DNA of 64,000 bases from Armatimonadota bacterium (lineage in GTDB: Bacteria > Armatimonadota > SYMT01). Under the pieces are notes generated by a model. That model ran no database searches. It was given only the letters and a program-made list of their open reading frames with translations, and was not told where the DNA came from. Positions 3,545 to 63,889 of this stretch are shown here, piece after piece. The DNA lies in the NCBI GenBank assembly GCA_046292385.1, contig JBKBRF010000025.1:1-64000 (forward strand), written 5' to 3'. The first letter of the stretch is position 1; the number at the start of each line of letters is the position of its first letter. The translations under genes were made by a program, and so were the position numbers.

Positions 3545-5019
3545 TGAGCTCCCCGCTGAACCGCCGCCGTTTCCTGAAGAGCGCCGCGGGCACCGGCGCC
3601 GGCCTGCTGATCGTCCCGGCGCGGACCGCCTTCACCTACCAGGCGAACGAGCGGCTCAACCTGGCGCTGGTCGGGGTGGGCGGCTACGCCTGCGCGGCCC
3701 ACTTCGTCCCGGCGCTGCACCTGTACGAGAACGTCGGCGTCGCGGCGATCTGCGACGTCGACGACCGCAAGCTCGCGCCGCACCTGAAGCTCTGGGAGGA
3801 GCGGGCGCGGGAGTGGCCCGCCTCCGCCGAGGAGAAGGAACGGAAGGGCGCGGAGGTCTATCAGCGGGTCTCCGCGGCGGCGACGCGGCCTCCGCTCTTC
3901 CGAGACTTCCGGGAGATGCTGGAGCGGAAGGACCGCGAGATCGACGCGGTGGTCTGCTCTACGCCGGACCACACGCACGCCGTCGTCTCCGCGGCCTCGC
4001 TGCGCGCCGGCAAGCACATCCTGGCGGAGAAGCCGCTCACGATCACCGTTCACGAGGCGCGCGCGCTGCGGCGGCTCGCCGGAGAGCGGAAGCTGGCGAC
4101 CTCCATGGGCAACCAGGGAACCCAGAGCGGCCAGTTTCGGCGGGGGGTCGAGCTGATCCGCGAGGGCATCCTCGGCCCCGTGGAGGAAGTCCACGTCTGG
4201 TACGCCCGCGGCGGCGTGGCGCACCGGCAGCAACCCGCAGGCGAGGAACCGGTGCCGCCGGAGCTCCACTGGGACCTCTGGCTCGGACCGGCGGCGTGGC
4301 GGCCCTACCACTCCCGGTGGATCGCCCGGAACCACTGGCGCGAGACCGGCATCGGGGAGCTGGGGAATTTCGGGCCGCACACGCTGAACCTGGCGTTCAT
4401 GGGGCTCAACATCGCCGACCTCTGGCAGCCCGGCTCACAGCCCCGGATCCGAGTCGAAGCCGAGGCGGCCGAGATCAATCCCCTCTCCTTCCCGCGCTGG
4501 GAAACGATCCGGTGGAAAGTCCCCGCGCGCGGGCAGCAGCCCCCGGTCACGATCACCTGGCACCACGGCCCGGAGCCGAAATTTGCACCCGGCGACCGGG
4601 AGATGCTGCGGCAGCGGGTGCTCGACCTCGGCGGCACCGCGGAGCAGGCGGACTCGCTGGAGCGCGGCACCGGGTGCCTCGTCATCGGCAGCAAGGGCGC
4701 GCTGCTCACCGACAGCCACAACACCCGCTTCGCGCTGCTGCCGGCGGAGCGGTTCCAGGACGTGGAGCAGCAGTCGCCCAGGACGCTGCCCTCCTCGCGC
4801 GGGCACTACCGCGACTGGCTGCACGCCTGCCGCGGCGGCGAGATGCCGCTCGCGAGCTTCGACTACGCCGCCACCTTCAGCGAGTTTCTGGCGCTCGGCA
4901 GCGTCTCCACGCGCTTCGAAGGAGAGCTGGAGTACGATCCGGTCCCCGGACGGGTCACCCACCGCGCCGACGCAAACCAGGCCCTCGGCTACGAGTACCG
5001 CTCGGGCTGGAGGTTGTAG
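3544..5019 (+). CDS. Gfo/Idh/MocA oxidoreductase, Tat signal
   Basis: NRRRFLK, ALVGVGG, STPDHTH, AEKPL, SMGNQG, WDLWLGPA; ATG overlaps the upstream TGA. Confidence 0.9.
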   Translation: MSSPLNRRRFLKSAAGTGAGLLIVPARTAFTYQANERLNLALVGVGGYACAAHFVPALHLYENVGVAAICDVDDRKLAPHLKLWEERAREWPASAEEKERKGAEVYQRVSAAATRPPLFRDFREMLERKDREIDAVVCSTPDHTHAVVSAASLRAGKHILAEKPLTITVHEARALRRLAGERKLATSMGNQGTQSGQFRRGVELIREGILGPVEEVHVWYARGGVAHRQQPAGEEPVPPELHWDLWLGPAAWRPYHSRWIARNHWRETGIGELGNFGPHTLNLAFMGLNIADLWQPGSQPRIRVEAEAAEINPLSFPRWETIRWKVPARGQQPPVTITWHHGPEPKFAPGDREMLRQRVLDLGGTAEQADSLERGTGCLVIGSKGALLTDSHNTRFALLPAERFQDVEQQSPRTLPSSRGHYRDWLHACRGGEMPLASFDYAATFSEFLALGSVSTRFEGELEYDPVPGRVTHRADANQALGYEYRSGWRL

Positions 5020-5048
5020 CAGCCAGGCGCCGCACAGGAGGTCTCCGA

Positions 5049-5678
5049 TTGGCAGATGTCGCGGACGAACAGGAACACGGTCGGCCGCGCGGCCCCGGCT
5101 TGCTCGCTGCCGCGGGAGCGCTCCTGGCCGTCGGATTGCTCCTGCTCGGTGGGAACTGCGCCGCGCAGTACCCGCCGGCAACGAACCTGAGCCTGGCCCT
5201 GAACCCGACCGCCCATGCCGAGGCTGCGGTTTCCAGATCCGGCGAGTATCAGTTGACCCTGGAGCGGGTCGAGGGATCCCCAAACGCTTCGCGGGGGACG
5301 ATCGTGTGCCGGCTGCAGATCGACGGGGCGCCGGTATCGGTCGACTATCCCCTGCGGGAGTGGCGGACCTCGTACTGGACCGGGGGCCGTGAAGGGTGGG
5401 TCTTTCGAAAGGGGCTCCAGTTGAAAGCGGGCGAGCGCCTCGTCCTCGAAGGAACTCTCCGCGGGGCAGATCCCGAGCTTCCGGCGGCGCAGCCGAGCCT
5501 GAACCTGCATCTCGCACCGGAAGAGATGTCGAGGCTGGTAAGCCGCTTCGTCACGCACGGAACCCTCGCCCTCTCGCTCCTGGGGCTCGCCGGCTATCTC
5601 TATGCCCTGGAGCGCCGTCGGGCTGCGGAATGGCAGGAGTCGCAGGCCTCGCTCCAGCGCTGGGGAGAGCCCGACTGA
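5049..5678 (+). CDS. Hypothetical membrane protein (two hydrophobic segments)
   Basis: AGGAGG RBS then TTG; N- and C-terminal TM-like stretches; fills the gap between genes. Confidence 0.55.
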   Translation: MADVADEQEHGRPRGPGLLAAAGALLAVGLLLLGGNCAAQYPPATNLSLALNPTAHAEAAVSRSGEYQLTLERVEGSPNASRGTIVCRLQIDGAPVSVDYPLREWRTSYWTGGREGWVFRKGLQLKAGERLVLEGTLRGADPELPAAQPSLNLHLAPEEMSRLVSRFVTHGTLALSLLGLAGYLYALERRRAAEWQESQASLQRWGEPD

Positions 5679-5702
5679 CTCGTCAGCGCCACGCAGGCCG
5701 CC

Positions 5703-6290
5703 TCAGCGCGCCGGCGTTTCCGGCAGCTCTACCCGGCTGTAGAGGTCAGCCAACGAGATGGAGGCGCCGCGCACCACCTCGAGCGGCACCGACGCCTCGG
5801 GGCCTGCGAATTCCTGGAAGCGCCACTCGGCGCCGTCACGGACAAATCGCTCCACCCGCTGACGATCCGTGGAGACCAGCCAGTACTCGCGCAGCGAGGG
5901 GATCCGGCGATAATGCCCGAACTTCGCGCCCCAGTCGTAGGCTTCCGTCGAGGGGGAAAGGACCTCAACGAGCGCGGAAGGATTCGTCAGAGTGTCCGGG
6001 TCTCGTGGGTCGTGCTCTTCCGGCGGACAGATGATCGAGAGATCGGGATAGGTGTAGATTCCGGTCGCGGCCACGCCCACCCGCTGGTCGCTGCCGTAGG
6101 GGCGGCACGGTGAGTCGCGCAGCAGCGTCCAGAGCAGCCCCATCAGATTGGCGGCGATCTGGTTGTGCACCGGCGATGCGCAGGCCATCGCATAGACTCG
6201 CCCGTTGACGAGCTCGCTCCGGGTCTCGGCCTCCCGCTCCAGCGCCAGGTACTCTTCTGGGGAATAGAGCCGGTCGAAGGCTGCTGACAT
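5703..6290 (-). CDS. Uma2 family (PD-(D/E)XK) endonuclease
   Basis: YSPEEYLALE, ELVNG, YTYPD, VEVLSPST, K..Y..IPSLREYWLV. Confidence 0.92.
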   Translation of the reverse strand: MSAAFDRLYSPEEYLALEREAETRSELVNGRVYAMACASPVHNQIAANLMGLLWTLLRDSPCRPYGSDQRVGVAATGIYTYPDLSIICPPEEHDPRDPDTLTNPSALVEVLSPSTEAYDWGAKFGHYRRIPSLREYWLVSTDRQRVERFVRDGAEWRFQEFAGPEASVPLEVVRGASISLADLYSRVELPETPAR

Positions 6291-10131: not shown

Positions 10132-11010
10132 ATGAGCTACACGGACACCAGACAGCGCGACTTCGGGCACGGCCAGATCCCGACCGACCTGGATCGGCTG
10201 GAGAACCTCGACGACTTCGAGATCGCGGAGGACGAGATCGACCCGCGCGGATGGGACGTCGTGGGGCAGGATGGCGAGAAGATCGGAACGATCAAGCATC
10301 TCCTGGCCAGCCCCACCACGATGCGGGCGCACTTCGCGGTAGTCGACTGCGGCGGCTGGTTCAACCAGAAGCTGTTCGCGATCCCGCTGGACGACCTGCG
10401 CTTCGACCGGAACGACGACCAGGTGCACGCGCCGTTCACCCGGGAGCAGTTCCAGAACGCGCCGGAGTGGAGTGAAGACCGGCCGGACTACCAGGGCTAC
10501 TACTCCTACTGGAGCGGGCTCGGCGCGGGCACGATGGCGACCCGCCGCGACGTCCGCGAGCGCGGTGAGCTTCGAGAGGAGACCGGCGCTCGCGGCGGCG
10601 AGATCCGTGTCCCGGTCACCGAGGAGGTAGCGGAGGTCCGGAAGCAGGCCCACGAGGCCGGCGCCGTGACGATTCGGAAGCGGGCGCACACCGAAACGCA
10701 GCATATCTCCGAGCCGGTGCGGCGCACCCGCGTGGTCGCCGAGACGCGGGAGGTGCCGCCCGGCGAGCAGTACACCGCGGCCAATGCGACCACCCTGCGC
10801 GAAGGAGAGACGCTCCGCGTGCCGGTGATCGAGGAAGAGCTCACCGTGGAGAAGACCCCCCGCGTGACGAAGGAGGTCGTCCTCCGCACCGAGACGGAGA
10901 CCGAGCAGGTCGAGCGCGACGTCGAGCTCCGCCACGAGGAAGTCGAGCTCGAGGAGGAAGGCGACGTCGAGTACGACGAGGCCGCTCCGCGCGCCGGCGG
11001 CCGTTTCTGA
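10132..11010 (+). CDS. PRC-barrel + YsnF/AvaK (DUF2382) domain protein
   Basis: DPRGWDVVGQDGEKIG (PRC); VPVIEEELTVEK..V.KEV, acidic C-terminus. Confidence 0.88.
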   Translation: MSYTDTRQRDFGHGQIPTDLDRLENLDDFEIAEDEIDPRGWDVVGQDGEKIGTIKHLLASPTTMRAHFAVVDCGGWFNQKLFAIPLDDLRFDRNDDQVHAPFTREQFQNAPEWSEDRPDYQGYYSYWSGLGAGTMATRRDVRERGELREETGARGGEIRVPVTEEVAEVRKQAHEAGAVTIRKRAHTETQHISEPVRRTRVVAETREVPPGEQYTAANATTLREGETLRVPVIEEELTVEKTPRVTKEVVLRTETETEQVERDVELRHEEVELEEEGDVEYDEAAPRAGGRF

Positions 11011-46905: not shown

Positions 46906-47211
46906 AGGAGCCTGGAGGCGCTGCCGAAGGCAGTGGTGCAAGGCTCCCCTTGTGAAGGCCCCTAGCGAGGGGCCTTTGCTTGAGCCGGACGGAGCGGCCC
47001 GTGAACCGCAGCCCTGGAGCAACCGCAGCCAGCGGTCGCGGAGCTCAGGCTACCGGCGAGCACGCCCGGACCAGCCCGCTAGCGGAGGCGCAGCCGGAGC
47101 GTGAAAGGGCTGTGGGAGGGCCAAGCACGCGTGAGGGCCGCTCCGGGAGGTGAGGGCACGGGGTGGAACTGCGGCGAGATCACGCTCTCGGGCAGTCAGC
47201 GACTGAATCCG
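46906..47211 (+). ncRNA. Unidentified structured element, copy A (RNA or ssDNA; ends approximate)
   Basis: Colinear conserved blocks and covarying stems shared with 62026-62395. Confidence 0.6.
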
Positions 47212-59656: not shown

Positions 59657-59889
59657 GCCGCAGTCAACTCACCCGTCGGCGGCCGGGTCACGTCCGGGAT
59701 CGCGGGCGCACCGCAGCAGCTCCACCTCTTCCTTGAAACGGAACCCTGTGGAGCGAAGCCTGAGGGGCGAGCAGGGGGTATTCTGAGAAACGGCGGCGGG
59801 GCTGAGCTGCGTAAAGGATTTTGGGGTGCGGCCGGCGGCCCGTCAACCAACTCTCAACCGACTGCCGGCGCGGCGGCGGGTCTATCTGC

Positions 59890-59918
59890 TTGACCCCCTG
59901 GCCGCGGGTCAATAGAGT
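59890..59918 (+). promoter_or_regulatory. Putative sigma70 promoter with palindromic operator
   Basis: TTGACC-17 nt-TAGAGT; TTGACCC-N9-GGGTCAA overlaps the -35 and spacer. Confidence 0.6.
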
Positions 59919-59964
59919 GGTAGCGGTAGGGCTGCCGCCCGACCGGTCCCGAGGAGTTTTCCGG

Positions 59965-61950
59965 ATGGCGATTCGACCTGCGCTCCTTACGCTTTCGCTG
60001 GTGATCACGCCGGCGCTGGTGATCTACGCGGCCGAGCCGGTCGGCAGCAAGCCTGCCGCCGCCAAAAAGGCGGCGAAGCCCGCGGCGAGCGAGCCGAAGG
60101 CGAAGAAGGTCGACTTCGCTCGCGACGTCACCGCGGTGCTCAAGAAGTACTGCTACAGCTGCCACAACTCGAAGCAGGAGATCGCCAGCGTCAACCTGGA
60201 GCTGCTCACCTCGCAGAAGTCGCTCGCCGAGAAGCGCGACGTCTGGGAGAAGGTGCTCCACGTGATGAAGGCGAGCACCATGCCGCCTCGCAACCTGCCG
60301 CAGCCGACCAAGGCGGAGCGGGAGCGCCTCTCCACCTGGCTCGACGCGCAGCTCTTCGCCGTCAACTGCGACCTGAAGGACCCGGGCCGGGTCACGATGC
60401 GGCGCCTCAACCGCGTGGAGTACGACAACACGGTCCGCGACCTGACCGGTCTCGACGTGAAGCCGTCCGAGCTCTTCCCCTCCGACGACGTCGGCTACGG
60501 CTTCGACAACATCGGCGACGTGCTCACCATCTCGCCGCTGCTGATGGAGAAGTACCTGAACGCGGCGGAGGAGATCGCCGACCGGGCGATCGTCACGCCC
60601 GAGTCCCGCGGCGGCAAGCTGCCGGCGGAGCTGCCGGAATCCCACAGGCGGATCATCACCACCGCCGCCGCGCCGGACGCCTCGCTGGACGACAAGAAGA
60701 AGGCGGCGCGCGCCTCCCTGGCGGAGTTCGGCCGCCGCGCCTACCGCCGCCCGCTGCAGGACGGCGAGCTGGACCGCCTGGTCAAGATCGTCGAGCTCTC
60801 GGTCAAGGACGGCGACAGCTTCGAGCGCGGAATGCAGCTCGCCACGCAGGCGGTGCTCGTCTCCCCGCACTTCCTCTTCCGGGTGGAGCTGGACGGTAAG
60901 GACAAGGATCCGGCTAAGGCGCGCGACCTGAACGGCTACGAGCTGGCGAGCCGCCTCTCCTACTTCCTCTGGAGCACCATGCCGGACGACGAGCTGTTCC
61001 GGCTGGCGGAGAGCGGCACGCTGACCCAGCCGAAGGTGCTGGAAGCCCAGGTCCGCCGCATGCTCGCGCACGAGAAGGCGTGGGCGCTGGTGGAGAACTT
61101 CGGCGAGCAGTGGCTGACGCTGCGGACGCTGAAGACCGCCAGCCCGGACCCGAAGCAGTTCCCCACCTTCAACGACCAGCTCCGGGACGCGATGCTGACC
61201 GAGACGCACATGTTCTTCCAGTCGATCCTGAAGGAAGACAAGAGCGTCCTCGACTTCATCGACGGCAACTACACCTACCTGAACGAGCCGCTCGCGAAGC
61301 ACTACGGCATCGACTTCGTGAAGGGCGACCACTTCCGCAAGGTGGTGCTCACCAACGACCAGCGCCGCGGCGTGCTGACCCAGGCGAGCATCCTCACCAT
61401 CACCTCCAACCCGACGCGGACCTCGCCGGTGAAGCGCGGCAAGTGGGTGCTGGAGCAGATCCTCGGCACCCCGCCGCCCCCGCCGCCGCCGAACGTGCCG
61501 GAGCTGGAAGAGGCGAAGGAAGGCCAGGTGCTGAAGGGCACGCTGCGCGAGCGGATGGAGCAGCACCGGGCGGACCCCGGCTGCGCTTCCTGCCACTTGC
61601 GGATGGACGCACTCGGATTCGGGCTGGAGAACTTCGACCCGATCGGCGCGTGGCGTGAAAAGGATGGCGAGGACCCGATCGACGCCTCCGGCACGCTTCC
61701 GTCCGGCGAGGAGTTCAAGACGCCGGTCGAGCTGATCCAGATCCTCAAGGGCGAGAAGGAGCAGTTCGTCACCCACCTCGCCGGCCAGCTCCTCACGTTC
61801 GGCCTCGGCCGCGGCCTGGAGTACTACGACCGCTGCGCCGTCGACGAGATGGTGGCGAAGGCCGCCAAGGATAACTACCGCTTCTCCACCCTCATCATGG
61901 AGATCGTCAAGAGCGACCCGTTCCGGAAGAAGCGGGGAGACGGGAATTAA
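59965..61950 (+). CDS. Cytochrome c + DUF1587/DUF1595/DUF1592/DUF1588/DUF1585 protein
   Basis: CYSCH, RRLNRVEYDNTVRDL, YGFDNIG, LASRLSYFLWS.MPD, TSPVKRGKWV, CASCH. Confidence 0.92.
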   Translation: MAIRPALLTLSLVITPALVIYAAEPVGSKPAAAKKAAKPAASEPKAKKVDFARDVTAVLKKYCYSCHNSKQEIASVNLELLTSQKSLAEKRDVWEKVLHVMKASTMPPRNLPQPTKAERERLSTWLDAQLFAVNCDLKDPGRVTMRRLNRVEYDNTVRDLTGLDVKPSELFPSDDVGYGFDNIGDVLTISPLLMEKYLNAAEEIADRAIVTPESRGGKLPAELPESHRRIITTAAAPDASLDDKKKAARASLAEFGRRAYRRPLQDGELDRLVKIVELSVKDGDSFERGMQLATQAVLVSPHFLFRVELDGKDKDPAKARDLNGYELASRLSYFLWSTMPDDELFRLAESGTLTQPKVLEAQVRRMLAHEKAWALVENFGEQWLTLRTLKTASPDPKQFPTFNDQLRDAMLTETHMFFQSILKEDKSVLDFIDGNYTYLNEPLAKHYGIDFVKGDHFRKVVLTNDQRRGVLTQASILTITSNPTRTSPVKRGKWVLEQILGTPPPPPPPNVPELEEAKEGQVLKGTLRERMEQHRADPGCASCHLRMDALGFGLENFDPIGAWREKDGEDPIDASGTLPSGEEFKTPVELIQILKGEKEQFVTHLAGQLLTFGLGRGLEYYDRCAVDEMVAKAAKDNYRFSTLIMEIVKSDPFRKKRGDGN

Positions 61951-62003
61951 AGGCAAAAGGCTAAAGGCAGAAGGCTAAAGGGGCTGAAGGCAGAGGCTGA
62001 AGG
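61949..62003 (+). repeat. Solo heptamer tandem array (RAAGGCW)
   Basis: AAAGGCA AAAGGCT AAAGGCA GAAGGCT AAAGG..., starting in the stop codon. Confidence 0.75.
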
Positions 62004-62025
62004 TTCACGCCCGCCGGAACCGCTG

Positions 62026-62395
62026 GCGTCCGGAGGAGCAGCCGGAGGCTGGGCCGGAGGACGGCACTTGTGACCACCCCTGGGCGCCAGGGGTGGTTGC
62101 TCGAAGGGCCGGGATTCAGCCCGTGAACCGAGCTACGGTTGAGATCCGTAGCTGCGGCGCGGGAAAAGCCTGCCGAGGTGAACTCCCGGAGCGGCCCGCT
62201 AACGGAGCGAAGCGGAGTGTGAAAGGGCCGGCGGAGGGCCGACGCCGCGGGAGGGCTGAATCCCGGCACAAGGGCGCGGGGTCGGACACTCGGAATGGAC
62301 GCCGCCGGGCGGAAGGCGTCGTAAAGCTCTGGTGTCAGGGTTCGAGCCGGACAGATGACGCTGTCGCCGAGCAAGCTCCGCCCGCGGCCCCGACA
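62026..62395 (+). ncRNA. Unidentified structured element, copy B (RNA or ssDNA; ends approximate)
   Basis: Homologous to 46906-47211; perfect 15-bp long-range stem 62108-62122/62253-62267. Confidence 0.6.
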
Positions 62396-62542
62396 ACTTT
62401 GGCTTCGCTGGCGGCTCGCACTCTGTTCGCAGGGTTTTCGCCGGGAAACCTAAAACAACTCAACGGCGGGCTCGCTCGCCCGGTGTCCTAGATCGGGTAT
62501 AGGGTAGATACGAGTATTCCCTTCGGTAACGAGGAAGCGTGC

Positions 62543-63889
62543 ATGATCGACAAGCAACTGCCACGGCGGACGTTCCTGCGTGGGATGGGGACCGCCATGT
62601 CCCTCCCGCTGCTGGAGGCGATGCTCCCGTCCTCCGCGCTCGCCGCGCCGGACGTGAAGAAGGCCCCCCAGCGGATCGCATTCCTCTTTGTGCCGAACGG
62701 CGTGCACATGCAGGACTGGACGCCCAAGACCGAGGGCAGCCTGGAAGAACTGCCGTTCGTGCTGGAGCCGCTCAAGGAGATCCGGCACAAGGTCTCCGTC
62801 CTGACCAACCTGACGCACGACAAGGCGCGGCCGAACGGCGATGGCCCGGGCGACCACGCCCGCTCCGCCTCCGCGTTCCTGACCGCCTCCCAGCCGCGGA
62901 AGACGGCCGGGGCGGACATCCACGTCGGCGTCTCCGTAGACCAGGTGGCGGCGAAGCATATCGGCCGCAACACCCGCTTCGCCTCTCTCGAGCTCGGCTG
63001 CGAGCGGGGCCGGCTGGCCGGCAACTGCGACTCCGGGTATAGCTGCGCCTACTCCAACGCGATCTCCTGGCAGTCCCCCACCACGCCGGTGGCGAAGGAA
63101 GTCGACCCCCGCCTCGTCTTCGAGCGGCTCTTCGGGAGCGGCAGCAAGGAGAGCGCCGAGGCGCGGGCCAAGCGCGAGCGGAACCGGCTGAGCATCCTCG
63201 ATTACGTGATGGACGACGCCAAGCAGCTCCAGAAGCAGCTCGGCGTGAAGGACCAGCAGAAGCTGGATGAGTACTTCACCGGCGTCCGCGAGATCGAGAA
63301 GCGGATCGAGCTGGCGCAGCAGGGGCAGAGCACCGTGAGCGCCAGCGGCTACACCCCGCCGAGCGGCATCCCGAAGGACTACGCGGAGCACCTGCGGCTG
63401 ATGGCAGACATGATGGTGCTGGCGTTCCAGACCGACCAGACCCGCGTGCTCACCTTTATGCTGGCCAACGAGGGGAGCAACCGGCCGTACCCGATGCTGG
63501 AGATCCCGGACGGTCACCACGACCTCTCGCACCACGGCGGCGACAAGGTGAAGCACGACAAGATCCGGCGGATCAACCGGTTTCACGTGGAGACGCTGGC
63601 CTACGCGCTGCAGAAGCTCGACAGCATCAAGGAAGGCGACCAGACGATTCTCGACAACTCGATGATCGTCTACGGCTGCGCGATCAGCGACGGCAACCGC
63701 CACAACCACGACGAGCTGCCGGTCCTGCTCGCGGGCCGCGGCGGCGGCTGGATCGACTCCGGGCGGCACATCGTCTACCAGGACGAGACCCCGATGGCGA
63801 ACCTCTTCGTCACGATGCTGAACCGCGCGGGCGTGAAGACCGACGCCTTCGGCGACAGCACCGGGCCGCTCGACATGCTCGACAAGTAG
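62543..63889 (+). CDS. DUF1552 family protein, Tat-like leader
   Basis: RRTFLRG.G..MSLPLLEAM, FVPNG, SVDQ.AA, SLELG, CDSGYSCAY, HH.LSHH, DGNRHNH. Confidence 0.93.
   Translation: MIDKQLPRRTFLRGMGTAMSLPLLEAMLPSSALAAPDVKKAPQRIAFLFVPNGVHMQDWTPKTEGSLEELPFVLEPLKEIRHKVSVLTNLTHDKARPNGDGPGDHARSASAFLTASQPRKTAGADIHVGVSVDQVAAKHIGRNTRFASLELGCERGRLAGNCDSGYSCAYSNAISWQSPTTPVAKEVDPRLVFERLFGSGSKESAEARAKRERNRLSILDYVMDDAKQLQKQLGVKDQQKLDEYFTGVREIEKRIELAQQGQSTVSASGYTPPSGIPKDYAEHLRLMADMMVLAFQTDQTRVLTFMLANEGSNRPYPMLEIPDGHHDLSHHGGDKVKHDKIRRINRFHVETLAYALQKLDSIKEGDQTILDNSMIVYGCAISDGNRHNHDELPVLLAGRGGGWIDSGRHIVYQDETPMANLFVTMLNRAGVKTDAFGDSTGPLDMLDK

Follow-up and report, generated by a model that had tools for sequence, protein, structure and literature searches.

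The element examined here, copy B, lies in a gap between two genes of an Armatimonadota bacterium (lineage SYMT01; assembly GCA_046292385.1); the window, that is, the whole stretch of DNA analyzed, comprises positions 1 to 64,000 of contig JBKBRF010000025.1. As a preliminary description made from the sequence alone had stated, a gap of 592 nt separates the open reading frame (ORF) of a DUF1592-family protein (end, 61950) from that of a DUF1552 protein (start, 62543), the identities of both now resting on Pfam. The same description had placed an unrecognized large structured element at 62026 to 62395 and had reckoned with two copies of it. Copy B is, instead, a member of a large dispersed family whose single-strand fold is conserved, and we lean, with slightly more than even confidence, toward the view that it represents a non-autonomous mobile (self-spreading) element in which this fold is the recognized substrate.

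When the gap was compared by blastn with its own genome (7.04 Mb in 91 contigs), more than 100 matches to 62017 to 62316 were obtained. A single-sequence nhmmer search returned 120 matches, and two profile rounds raised this number to 154, of which 134 are at least 200 nt long, together covering 37,764 nt (0.54% of the genome). The family thus comprises approximately 134 near-full copies and 20 fragments of an element of approximately 280 to 300 nt with a G+C content of approximately 70%, a count which supersedes the two-copy view and favors a spreading element. Exactly two copies are located in the window itself, copy B with its core at 62068 to 62282 (203 bits with the covariance model R1 described below) and copy A with its core at 46950 to 47164 (157.9 bits), the latter being situated, as Pfam analysis confirmed, between an aldose epimerase gene and a Sde182-like gene. 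Of the copies that align over 220 positions or more (127 in all), 65 are of B type (including copy B, 62024 to 62312), 53 are of A type, and 9 are of neither; the median identity is 75% among B copies, 78% among A copies, and 65% when an A copy is compared with a B copy (63% for the two copies of the window). Because copies share a median of 84% and at most 97% identity with their nearest neighbor, 95% being exceeded in only 8 of 127 cases, most copies are, as judged by divergence, not recent.

The conservation of a fold was assessed with an alignment of 42 diverse copies over a core of 214 positions, from which R1 (214 positions) was built. Folded as a single sequence, 62024 to 62312 reaches −160.9 kcal/mol (z = −4.8; 200 shuffles), against −142.7 kcal/mol for the reverse strand. 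RNAalifold assigned 44 pairs to the alignment, 26 of them with compensatory changes, and standard pairs occupied 96.5% of 1,837 cells, against 81.3% in shuffled alignments (0 of 500 reaching the observed value) and 38.5 to 52.9% when the partners were slid. In an independent test based on 60 non-overlapping nearest-neighbor copy pairs (mean identity, 85%), double changes at paired positions kept the pair in 112 cases and broke it in 12 (17 being expected if the two sides were independent), single changes kept it in 78 cases and broke it in 74, and paired columns changed half as fast as unpaired ones (0.084 versus 0.179). As double changes exceed expectation and paired columns are the slower ones, the structure was under selection throughout the diversification of the family. 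Furthermore, G-U pairs are frequent in the 42-copy alignment and A-C oppositions are rare, and the alifold energy is −61.9 on the fold strand compared with −39.9 on the other; by virtue of this asymmetry and the better energy, the folded molecule is the + strand of copy B, whether RNA or single-stranded DNA. Pseudoknots were sought by scanning column pairs, which yielded only signals linked to the division between the A and B subfamilies. A coding function was considered and rejected, as only 5 to 22 of the 127 copies are open in any given fold-strand frame and their lengths are distributed 45/40/42 over the three residues modulo 3.

The features of the locus and of copy B are collected in Table 1.

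Table 1. Features of the DUF1592-DUF1552 locus, the parts of copy B, and the second copy of the window
Feature	Position	Strand	Basis
Copy A (subfamily A)	46906..47175	+	nhmmer; R1 core 46950-47164, E 7.6e-34
Upstream gene, DUF1592-family protein (PSD4, PSCyt3, PSD3, PSD2, PSD5 domains)	59821..61950	+	ORF list, Pfam
Short tandem array, period 7/14/23, directly 3′ of the DUF1592 stop	61948..62003		Tandem Repeats Finder (TRF), blastn
GCCGGAACC, local form of C/A-rich motif (CCAGAAACC type)	62013..62021	+	Upstream alignments
P0 leader hairpin	62025..62065	+	Per-copy folds of 127 leaders, alignment
Conserved single-stranded ACUUGUGA, core start	62066..62073	+	Alignment
P1 hairpin, 12 bp in copy B	62072..62098	+	Covariation; compensatory changes in 7 of 10 modelled pairs
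P2 5′ strand GCUC	62099..62102	+	Pairs with GGGC 62272-62275; covariance-model alignment
P3 5′ strand of 15-bp long-range helix	62108..62122	+	Pairs with 62253-62267
P4 variable hairpin	62131..62153	+	Sequence; other hairpins at that place in other copies
Inner domain with helices P6 to P9	62154..62252	+	Alignment, covariation
P3 3′ strand	62253..62267	+	Covariation
P2 3′ strand GGGC	62272..62275	+	Covariation, fold, covariance-model alignment
Conserved 3′ tail, GCGGGGUCGG..., small hairpin; family similarity ends	62276..62312	+	Alignments
Locus-specific spacer, outside the repeat family	62313..62542		blastn, covariance model, ARAGORN, promoter/terminator inspection
Downstream gene, DUF1552 (HXXSHH) protein	62543..63889	+	ORF list, Pfam

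The family-conserved unit starts at approximately 62024 and stops at approximately 62305 to 62312 (62 aligned copies), so that the formerly assigned end at 62395 overshoots by about 85 nt. The longer 3′ domain that had been described there (62313 to 62395, with GACAC/GTGTC, GACGCC/GGCGTC, and a final CCGACA as in copy A) is unique to this locus, no copy matching it, and hairpins within 62285 to 62335 are present in the sequence. The long-range stem P3, by comparison, proved to be perfectly complementary, as had been noted, 12 of its 15 pairs showing compensatory changes among the 42 copies. The variable hairpin AGCTACGG/CCGTAGCT (62131 to 62138 and 62146 to 62153) was likewise recovered, unrelated hairpins occupying the same place in other copies. 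An outer stem, CTTGTG/CACAAG, can indeed pair in copy B but displays no compensatory change across copies; only one-sided pair-keeping changes (UA/UG and GC/GU) occur, and its positions are paired in 82.6% of cases compared with 82.9% after shuffling. This stem is regarded as putative, and R1 closes the core not by it but by P2, in which a U-G pair is found in 41 of 42 copies and the next pair is CG in 26 and UG in 16. Of the original observations, those on the gap, the array, the 15-bp stem, the variable hairpin, and copy A hold, those on the 3′ domain and the number of copies are corrected, and that on the outer stem is not confirmed.

The P0 leader hairpin consists of an outer stem, a symmetric GGA/GGA internal loop, an inner stem which differs between copies, and a GNA triloop, the 127 leaders folding at a mean of −27.5 kcal/mol (−23.3 kcal/mol when shuffled). 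At the start of the core, the UGU of ACUUGUGA is nearly invariant among the 42 copies and is kept in other genera. The inner domain includes a variable-length hairpin with a GAA-type loop and carries the conserved junctions GCGCGGGAA, CUCCCGGAGC, GCUAAC/GCUAGC, GUGAAAGG, and CGCGGGAGGG, the same ones being kept in copies from two other genera of the family (represented by genomes G005 and G006), while symmetric internal loops of the GGAG type are found in two inner helices. A motif of the CCAGAAACC type, a similar form of which is seen in two other genera, lies 2 to 5 nt 5′ of the leader hairpin in a subset of copies; it precedes P0 in only about one-quarter of B copies and constitutes, at best, a weak candidate for the 5′ edge of the element or for its target.

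In order to describe the surroundings of the copies, genes were called with a rough caller whose codon log-odds were trained on this genome. By these calls, 118 of 120 copies extend no more than 30 nt into any gene and are, therefore, intergenic, and the gene downstream of a copy is on the same strand in 56 cases and on the opposite strand in 64. The 99 occupied gaps (52 tandem, 23 divergent, and 24 convergent) roughly follow the gap-length shares of the genome (59%, 25%, and 15%, respectively), with a mild convergent excess, and in tandem gaps 30 copies are in sense and 32 in antisense orientation. The preliminary view that the flanking genes are unrelated was borne out, as 198 flanking genes contained 33 related pairs in an all-against-all blastp comparison, while three random sets of 198 genes contained 17, 39, and 21. 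Rfam 15 returned no match at gathering score over the whole window and, in permissive mode, only a chance match (E 6.2).

These data bear directly on the notion of a metabolite riboswitch or a dedicated cis-regulatory leader of the DUF1552 gene, for which the placement of copy B 5′ of that gene, in sense, and its complex and conserved fold would speak. Across the 120 copies, however, orientation and neighbors are random, no Rfam entry matches, and orthologous gene pairs (see below) have no such leader. The random orientation and the unrelated neighbors exclude a leader or riboswitch of one gene class; the distribution of copies refutes the idea, to which we assign almost no remaining probability. 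The earlier judgment that a mobile or trans-acting element fits better than a metabolite riboswitch is supported by the orientation, neighbors, and number of the copies, by the insertion at the locus, and by the sharp-ended composites detailed below. Indeed, a self-spreading element fits far better owing to the high copy number, the intergenic position, the sharp ends of the composites, and the insertion.

Evidence for insertion was obtained by comparing the DUF1592-DUF1552 pair with the closest DUF1552 homologs of other genera of the family (62 to 66% identity) and with paralogs, together with their upstream genes, gap sizes being derived from tblastn coordinates on the assumption of colinear ends. 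In 10 of 11 other such pairs within the family the genes are separated by anything from an overlap to approximately 65 nt, and orthologous pairs in four other genera, tight and devoid of a leader, represent the empty site. The tightness of the orthologous pairs marks the 592-nt gap as derived and the copy as an insertion, and copy B is, as far as such comparisons indicate, inserted into an otherwise tightly packed gene pair. One paralogous pair in a relative (genome G002, locus L086, contig C292) has a gap of approximately 870 nt from which the element is absent (a 16-bit partial R1 match only) and which may hold another insertion.

The remainder of the gap is not part of the element. The tandem array that had been noted just before it was confirmed by TRF and belongs to a separate dispersed repeat family, as query positions 1 to 53 match many loci away from element copies by blastn; long arrays of this heptamer type occur elsewhere in the genome, e.g., on contig C60 (4300 to 4490). 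The 230-nt spacer 3′ of copy B has no blastn match elsewhere in the genome and contains several hairpins and a T-loop-like GGTTCGAGCC. A tRNA-like reading of the latter (62339 to 62348) was rejected upon a negative ARAGORN result, as was a second, degenerate element copy in the spacer, given that R1 detected no second match there. Inspection for consensus signals, the spacer included, revealed no sigma-70-type promoter, intrinsic terminator, or terminator-like U-tract. Assembled metatranscriptome contigs of one study reach 61983 from the DUF1592 side and start at 62519 or 62530 on the DUF1552 side, and none spans 61984 to 62518; such contigs break at repeats, and the missing coverage, therefore, carries no information on expression. 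One of them is 7 letters shorter at 61949, which corresponds to a one-unit length variant of the array.

A further property of the family is the formation of composite units. Copies form 26 head-to-head pairs, in which a minus-strand copy is followed by a plus-strand copy at a distance of 25 to 93 nt (plus one pair at 236 nt), and 25 of the 26 join one A copy to one B copy; in the tight pairs, the two leaders are only 25 to 29 nt apart. Twelve pairs constitute a composite subfamily (12 aligned copies) with an 804-nt consensus, subfamily-specific tails, and sharp ends, these ends being found only with elements or as short solo fragments. The composite, exemplified by contig C8 97284 to 98609 and contig C10 72256 to 73588, begins with CACAGCG and ends with GTAGTACAG, its order being A tail, A, a spacer with a hairpin resembling a type I-E CRISPR repeat, B, and B tail. 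Composites are often located within short tandem repeats of the ACAGAGG type, which hints at a preferred target. A separate arrangement was observed on contig C40 (13666 to 39999), where successive gaps between unrelated, mostly plus-strand genes contain, within 26 kb, eight full-length copies along with a 58-nt fragment, each of them on the minus strand; this is the only strong local run of orientation in the genome.

Beyond this genome, blastn detected essentially nothing, with two weak partial matches in relatives. R1, in contrast, produced full-length matches in the two other genera mentioned above, namely, at least 15 in G005 and at least 8 in G006, where the copies again form head-to-head pairs as well as tandem clusters. 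No R1 match was obtained in the other four genomes of the family, one of them from the same genus as G006, or in a further genome of that order, although 150 candidates were scored in each; the completeness of these genomes is 69 to 95%. Overall, 3 of the 151 genomes sampled from the phylum have R1 matches, and these belong to one Armatimonadota family. A pattern of conserved motifs hit 30 metagenome loci, 4 of which have R1 matches, and 10 loci in genome contigs, of which the 5 outside Armatimonadota were rejected for want of an R1 match; the pattern hit no viral contig, and phage and plasmid collections gave no blastn match. In a literature search covering abstracts and selected passages, no description of such an element in Armatimonadota was found.

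We infer from the above that the element probably moves, and it may also act in trans. In the favored scenario, the single-stranded fold, be it RNA or single-stranded DNA, would serve as the substrate of a trans-acting machinery, selection for spread would keep the fold while the sequence drifts, and copy B would have landed in this manner inside the tightly packed DUF1592-DUF1552 pair. A candidate route is single-strand DNA transposition of the IS200/IS605 or REPIN type (REPIN, repetitive extragenic palindromic [REP] doublet forming hairpins), which would fit because terminal inverted repeats (TIRs) and target-site duplications (TSDs) are absent. Copies carry the P0 hairpin at the 5′ end and a small hairpin in the 3′ tail, on the same strand and without TIR or TSD, an arrangement that resembles the end hairpins of such elements, while the core, in its size and invariance, is more reminiscent of a functional RNA.

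A number of results weigh against this scenario. Movement itself was not observed, and neither a presence/absence polymorphism nor an excision junction nor an autonomous parent came to light. Target-site duplications of at least 8 nt were not above control (longest shared flank word, mean of 7.09 versus 6.80 to 7.04) in the 74 of 75 solo copies that could be scored against mismatched flanks, duplications of 2 to 4 nt being beyond the reach of this test. Terminal inverted repeats are lacking on solo copies and on the 804-nt composite, whose only symmetry is that of the A-plus-B dimer. In this genome, no neighboring gene is enriched and no transposase is linked to the copies. TnpB (PF07282) and the reverse transcriptase domain RVT_1 have no match in the genome, their positive controls having responded in 8 and 3 of 14 genomes, respectively; an RRXRR search, for which the control was silent everywhere, carries no weight. 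Two IS110-type transposase genes are present, unlinked to the copies and without an element, and none of five Y1_Tnp matches lies beside one. The repeats around the sole Y1_Tnp gene with repeated flanks belong to another family, and Y1_Tnp also occurs in family members that do not have the element, so that its phyletic pattern is not discriminating. Lastly, known DNA transposases need far less than a fold of 214 positions in which many unpaired bases are invariant, and the fact that old copies (by the nearest-neighbor identities given above) are still folded also fits selection of each copy for a host function.

Several observations were made in the course of this search. The Y1_Tnp (HUH) gene with repeated flanks, on contig C22 (55627 to 55965; locus L070), is bordered at ~1800 to 2000 and ~2200 to 2400 of the locus by inverted palindromic repeats of ~100 nt from a family with 70 blastn hit rows in the genome, and it looks, on this sequence evidence, like a REP-associated tyrosine transposase (RAYT) gene with its own REPINs. 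On metagenome contig L110 (195 to 422 and 444 to 681), an rve-type (IS3-like) transposase fragment stops 22 nt short of a full-length copy, no other copy having been seen with a transposase immediately next to it, and one DDE_3 gene of G005 lies 2.4 kb from an element pair. Relative to GC skew, which is very weak here (median absolute skew, 0.012), 46 of 75 solo copies are discordant and 29 concordant in orientation; neighboring solo copies less than 10 kb apart share orientation in 11 of 15 cases, mostly through the run on C40. Group II introns and other retroelement RNAs were dismissed, RVT_1 and the Rfam intron entries being without a match, as was a classical miniature inverted-repeat transposable element (MITE), there being no TIR, no detected TSD, and no parent insertion sequence with the same ends.

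The conservation of the fold lends itself to a different explanation, according to which the copies are genes for a trans-acting structured noncoding RNA (ncRNA) with a host function, for instance, as the scaffold of a ribonucleoprotein (RNP), as a sponge binding proteins via GGA/GGAGG motifs, or as a ribozyme, each gene being transcribed on its own and the set having spread by duplication. A fold kept in three genera at an identity so low that blastn finds next to nothing while R1 matches over its full length, many invariant unpaired bases together with a nearly invariant U-G pair, compensatory evolution continuing even between the closest copies, and a consistent A/B pairing which could signify a heterodimer would all be accommodated by such genes. 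Solo copies, however, have no conserved promoter-like sequence upstream, the two leaders of a tight pair are only 25 to 29 nt apart, the element was not found in four of the seven family genomes, the G006 congener among them, and both the sharp-ended composites and the operon insertion look selfish. To our knowledge, 134 copies would be without precedent for a bacterial RNA gene. On this basis, we regard ncRNA genes as a fairly unlikely alternative.

Somewhat more doubtful is a domesticated punctuation element akin to REPs or bacterial interspersed mosaic elements (BIMEs), which would have spread by a mobile mechanism but been kept for a role in cis, such as protection of mRNA 3′ ends, insulation of transcription, or binding of nucleoid proteins. 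While the occupation of all types of intergenic gap with a mild convergent excess and the high stability of the fold (−160.9 kcal/mol) are compatible with such a role, the orientation of the copies is random and the fold is strand specific, implying that half of the copies would be transcribed as the wrong strand; in addition, a terminator-like U-tract is lacking, and the complexity is far above that of a protective hairpin.

An unexpected context was encountered in G005, where locus L062 (contig C3, 826000 to 841000) harbors type I-E Cas6e, Cas1, and Cas2 genes and two CRISPR arrays with a 61-nt period. Four element copies (at 4540 to 5770 and 10240 to 10960 of the locus) each lie in spacer position between I-E repeats, on the strand of the arrays, the unit order being a full 29-nt repeat, 8 nt, P0, core, a tail of ~75 to 95 nt, and a repeat. 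From the strand of the cas genes and the polarity of the repeat, we infer that these copies are at the trailer ends. The pattern of the repeat families D6 to D11 around them suggests that they represent one two-element insertion which was later duplicated.

These copies raise the prospect of a CRISPR-linked RNA, i.e., a unit between I-E repeats that Cas6e would cut from the array transcript and whose role could be that of a cr-like RNA, of a decoy in the manner of an RNA anti-CRISPR, or of an array invader; published reports describe solitary repeat units that have a part in regulation or as anti-CRISPRs (PMC10651486; 10.1101/2023.03.03.530964). Such a function would agree with the exact spacer position and orientation of the four copies, with a decayed repeat kept by a fifth copy elsewhere, and with the I-E-repeat-like hairpin between A and B of the 804-nt composite. 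Nevertheless, a repeat adjoins just 4 (plus the decayed case) of 21 copies examined in G005 and G006, the other 16 having none, as is true of most copies in the genome of the window; that genome has no Cas6e match and its own arrays, built on another repeat (37 nt), have no element nearby, and the four array-embedded copies look like one duplicated event. We, therefore, deem a CRISPR-linked RNA highly improbable. The two arrays of the genome are on contigs C28 (80940 to 81915) and C58 (23082 to 24129), with a repeat ending in ATTGAAAC, and two I-E-like repeat remnants are located on contig C1 (37471 to 37564), although no Cas6e gene was found. A broader and bolder proposal, which we entertain as a long shot with better prospects than the preceding one, is that of a new class of mobile structured RNA, a ribozyme-like or RNP-scaffold module of ~260 nt that would spread without an encoded protein, function as an A/B heterodimer, and could occupy the I-E spacer position and be excised by Cas6e. 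Were this true, it would constitute an array-invading or Cas-hijacking RNA element.

REPs, BIMEs, and REPINs, mobilized by RAYT (Y1 HUH) transposases, are intergenic, high-copy, strand-specific hairpins, including inverted dimers, without TIRs or target duplications; REPs are hairpins of ~20 to 40 nt, and REPINs are near-identical inverted dimers which flank or match a RAYT gene. The element is alike in its intergenic position, high copy number, strand-specific hairpins, inverted dimer, and absence of TIRs and target duplications, but differs from REPINs in that its arms measure ~280 nt, A and B are just 65% identical, and the RAYT-like gene of the genome is flanked by another family. HEARO (HNH endonuclease-associated RNA and ORF) and omega RNAs of IscB and TnpB (IS200/IS605) are structured RNAs ~200 to 300 nt in length and become multicopy by riding mobile elements. 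Here, there is no match to the Rfam HEARO entry, no TnpB domain in the genome, and no nuclease ORF beside any copy. Orphan large RNAs, such as raiA, ROOL, GOLLD, and OLE, are present in one or few copies per genome and in defined contexts; the element shares with them a complex covarying fold with many invariant bases but differs in being present ~134 times and in contexts that are random.

Prokaryotic MITEs, such as Correia, ERIC, BOX, and QMITE, have TIRs and direct repeats and are typically AT rich, according to a published review (PMC10969869). The element resembles MITEs, as presented there, in being small, noncoding, dispersed, and intergenic, with stably folding transcripts, and in being able to split operons, whereas its G+C content of ~70%, the lack of a detected TIR or TSD, and a multidomain fold in place of an end foldback set it apart. 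A closer likeness is to the mobile/repeat sequence candidates (MRSCs) of the Breaker laboratory surveys (e.g., MRSC-65-2; PMC11109978), with which it shares many copies of inconsistent orientation, covariation, and doubt as to whether RNA or DNA is the folded molecule; numerous copies with inconsistent orientation are exactly what was found here. MRSC-65-2 is described as a single long stem from diverse phyla, sometimes beside transposase genes (PMC11109978). The present element combines a 214-position multihelix fold with a leader hairpin, is restricted to a single Armatimonadota family among the genomes searched, and has no linked transposase; the frequent association of MRSCs with transposase, integrase, or nuclease genes has no counterpart here, no neighbor being enriched. 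A large multidomain fold that covaries across genera, coupled with the A/B dimer, thus separates the element from REPs and REPINs as well as from MITEs.

Most interspersed repeats of bacteria are simple hairpins or foldbacks, and most large multihelix RNAs with invariant junctions come from single-copy genes; this family unites both properties, combining ~134 copies, a covarying 214-position fold that even the most similar copies still preserve, and two cooperating subfamilies, for which no partner protein was found. If the fold is that of an RNA, the element may be a selfishly spreading ribozyme or a protein-binding scaffold; if it is that of single-stranded DNA, no substrate of transposition known from bacteria would be more elaborate. 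In either case, it provides a way to test how structure is retained in non-autonomous elements, and the copies in spacer position in the CRISPR arrays of a relative provide an unexpected lead. For the genomes of this Armatimonadota family, the element accounts for hundreds of oversized gene gaps and for several contig breaks.

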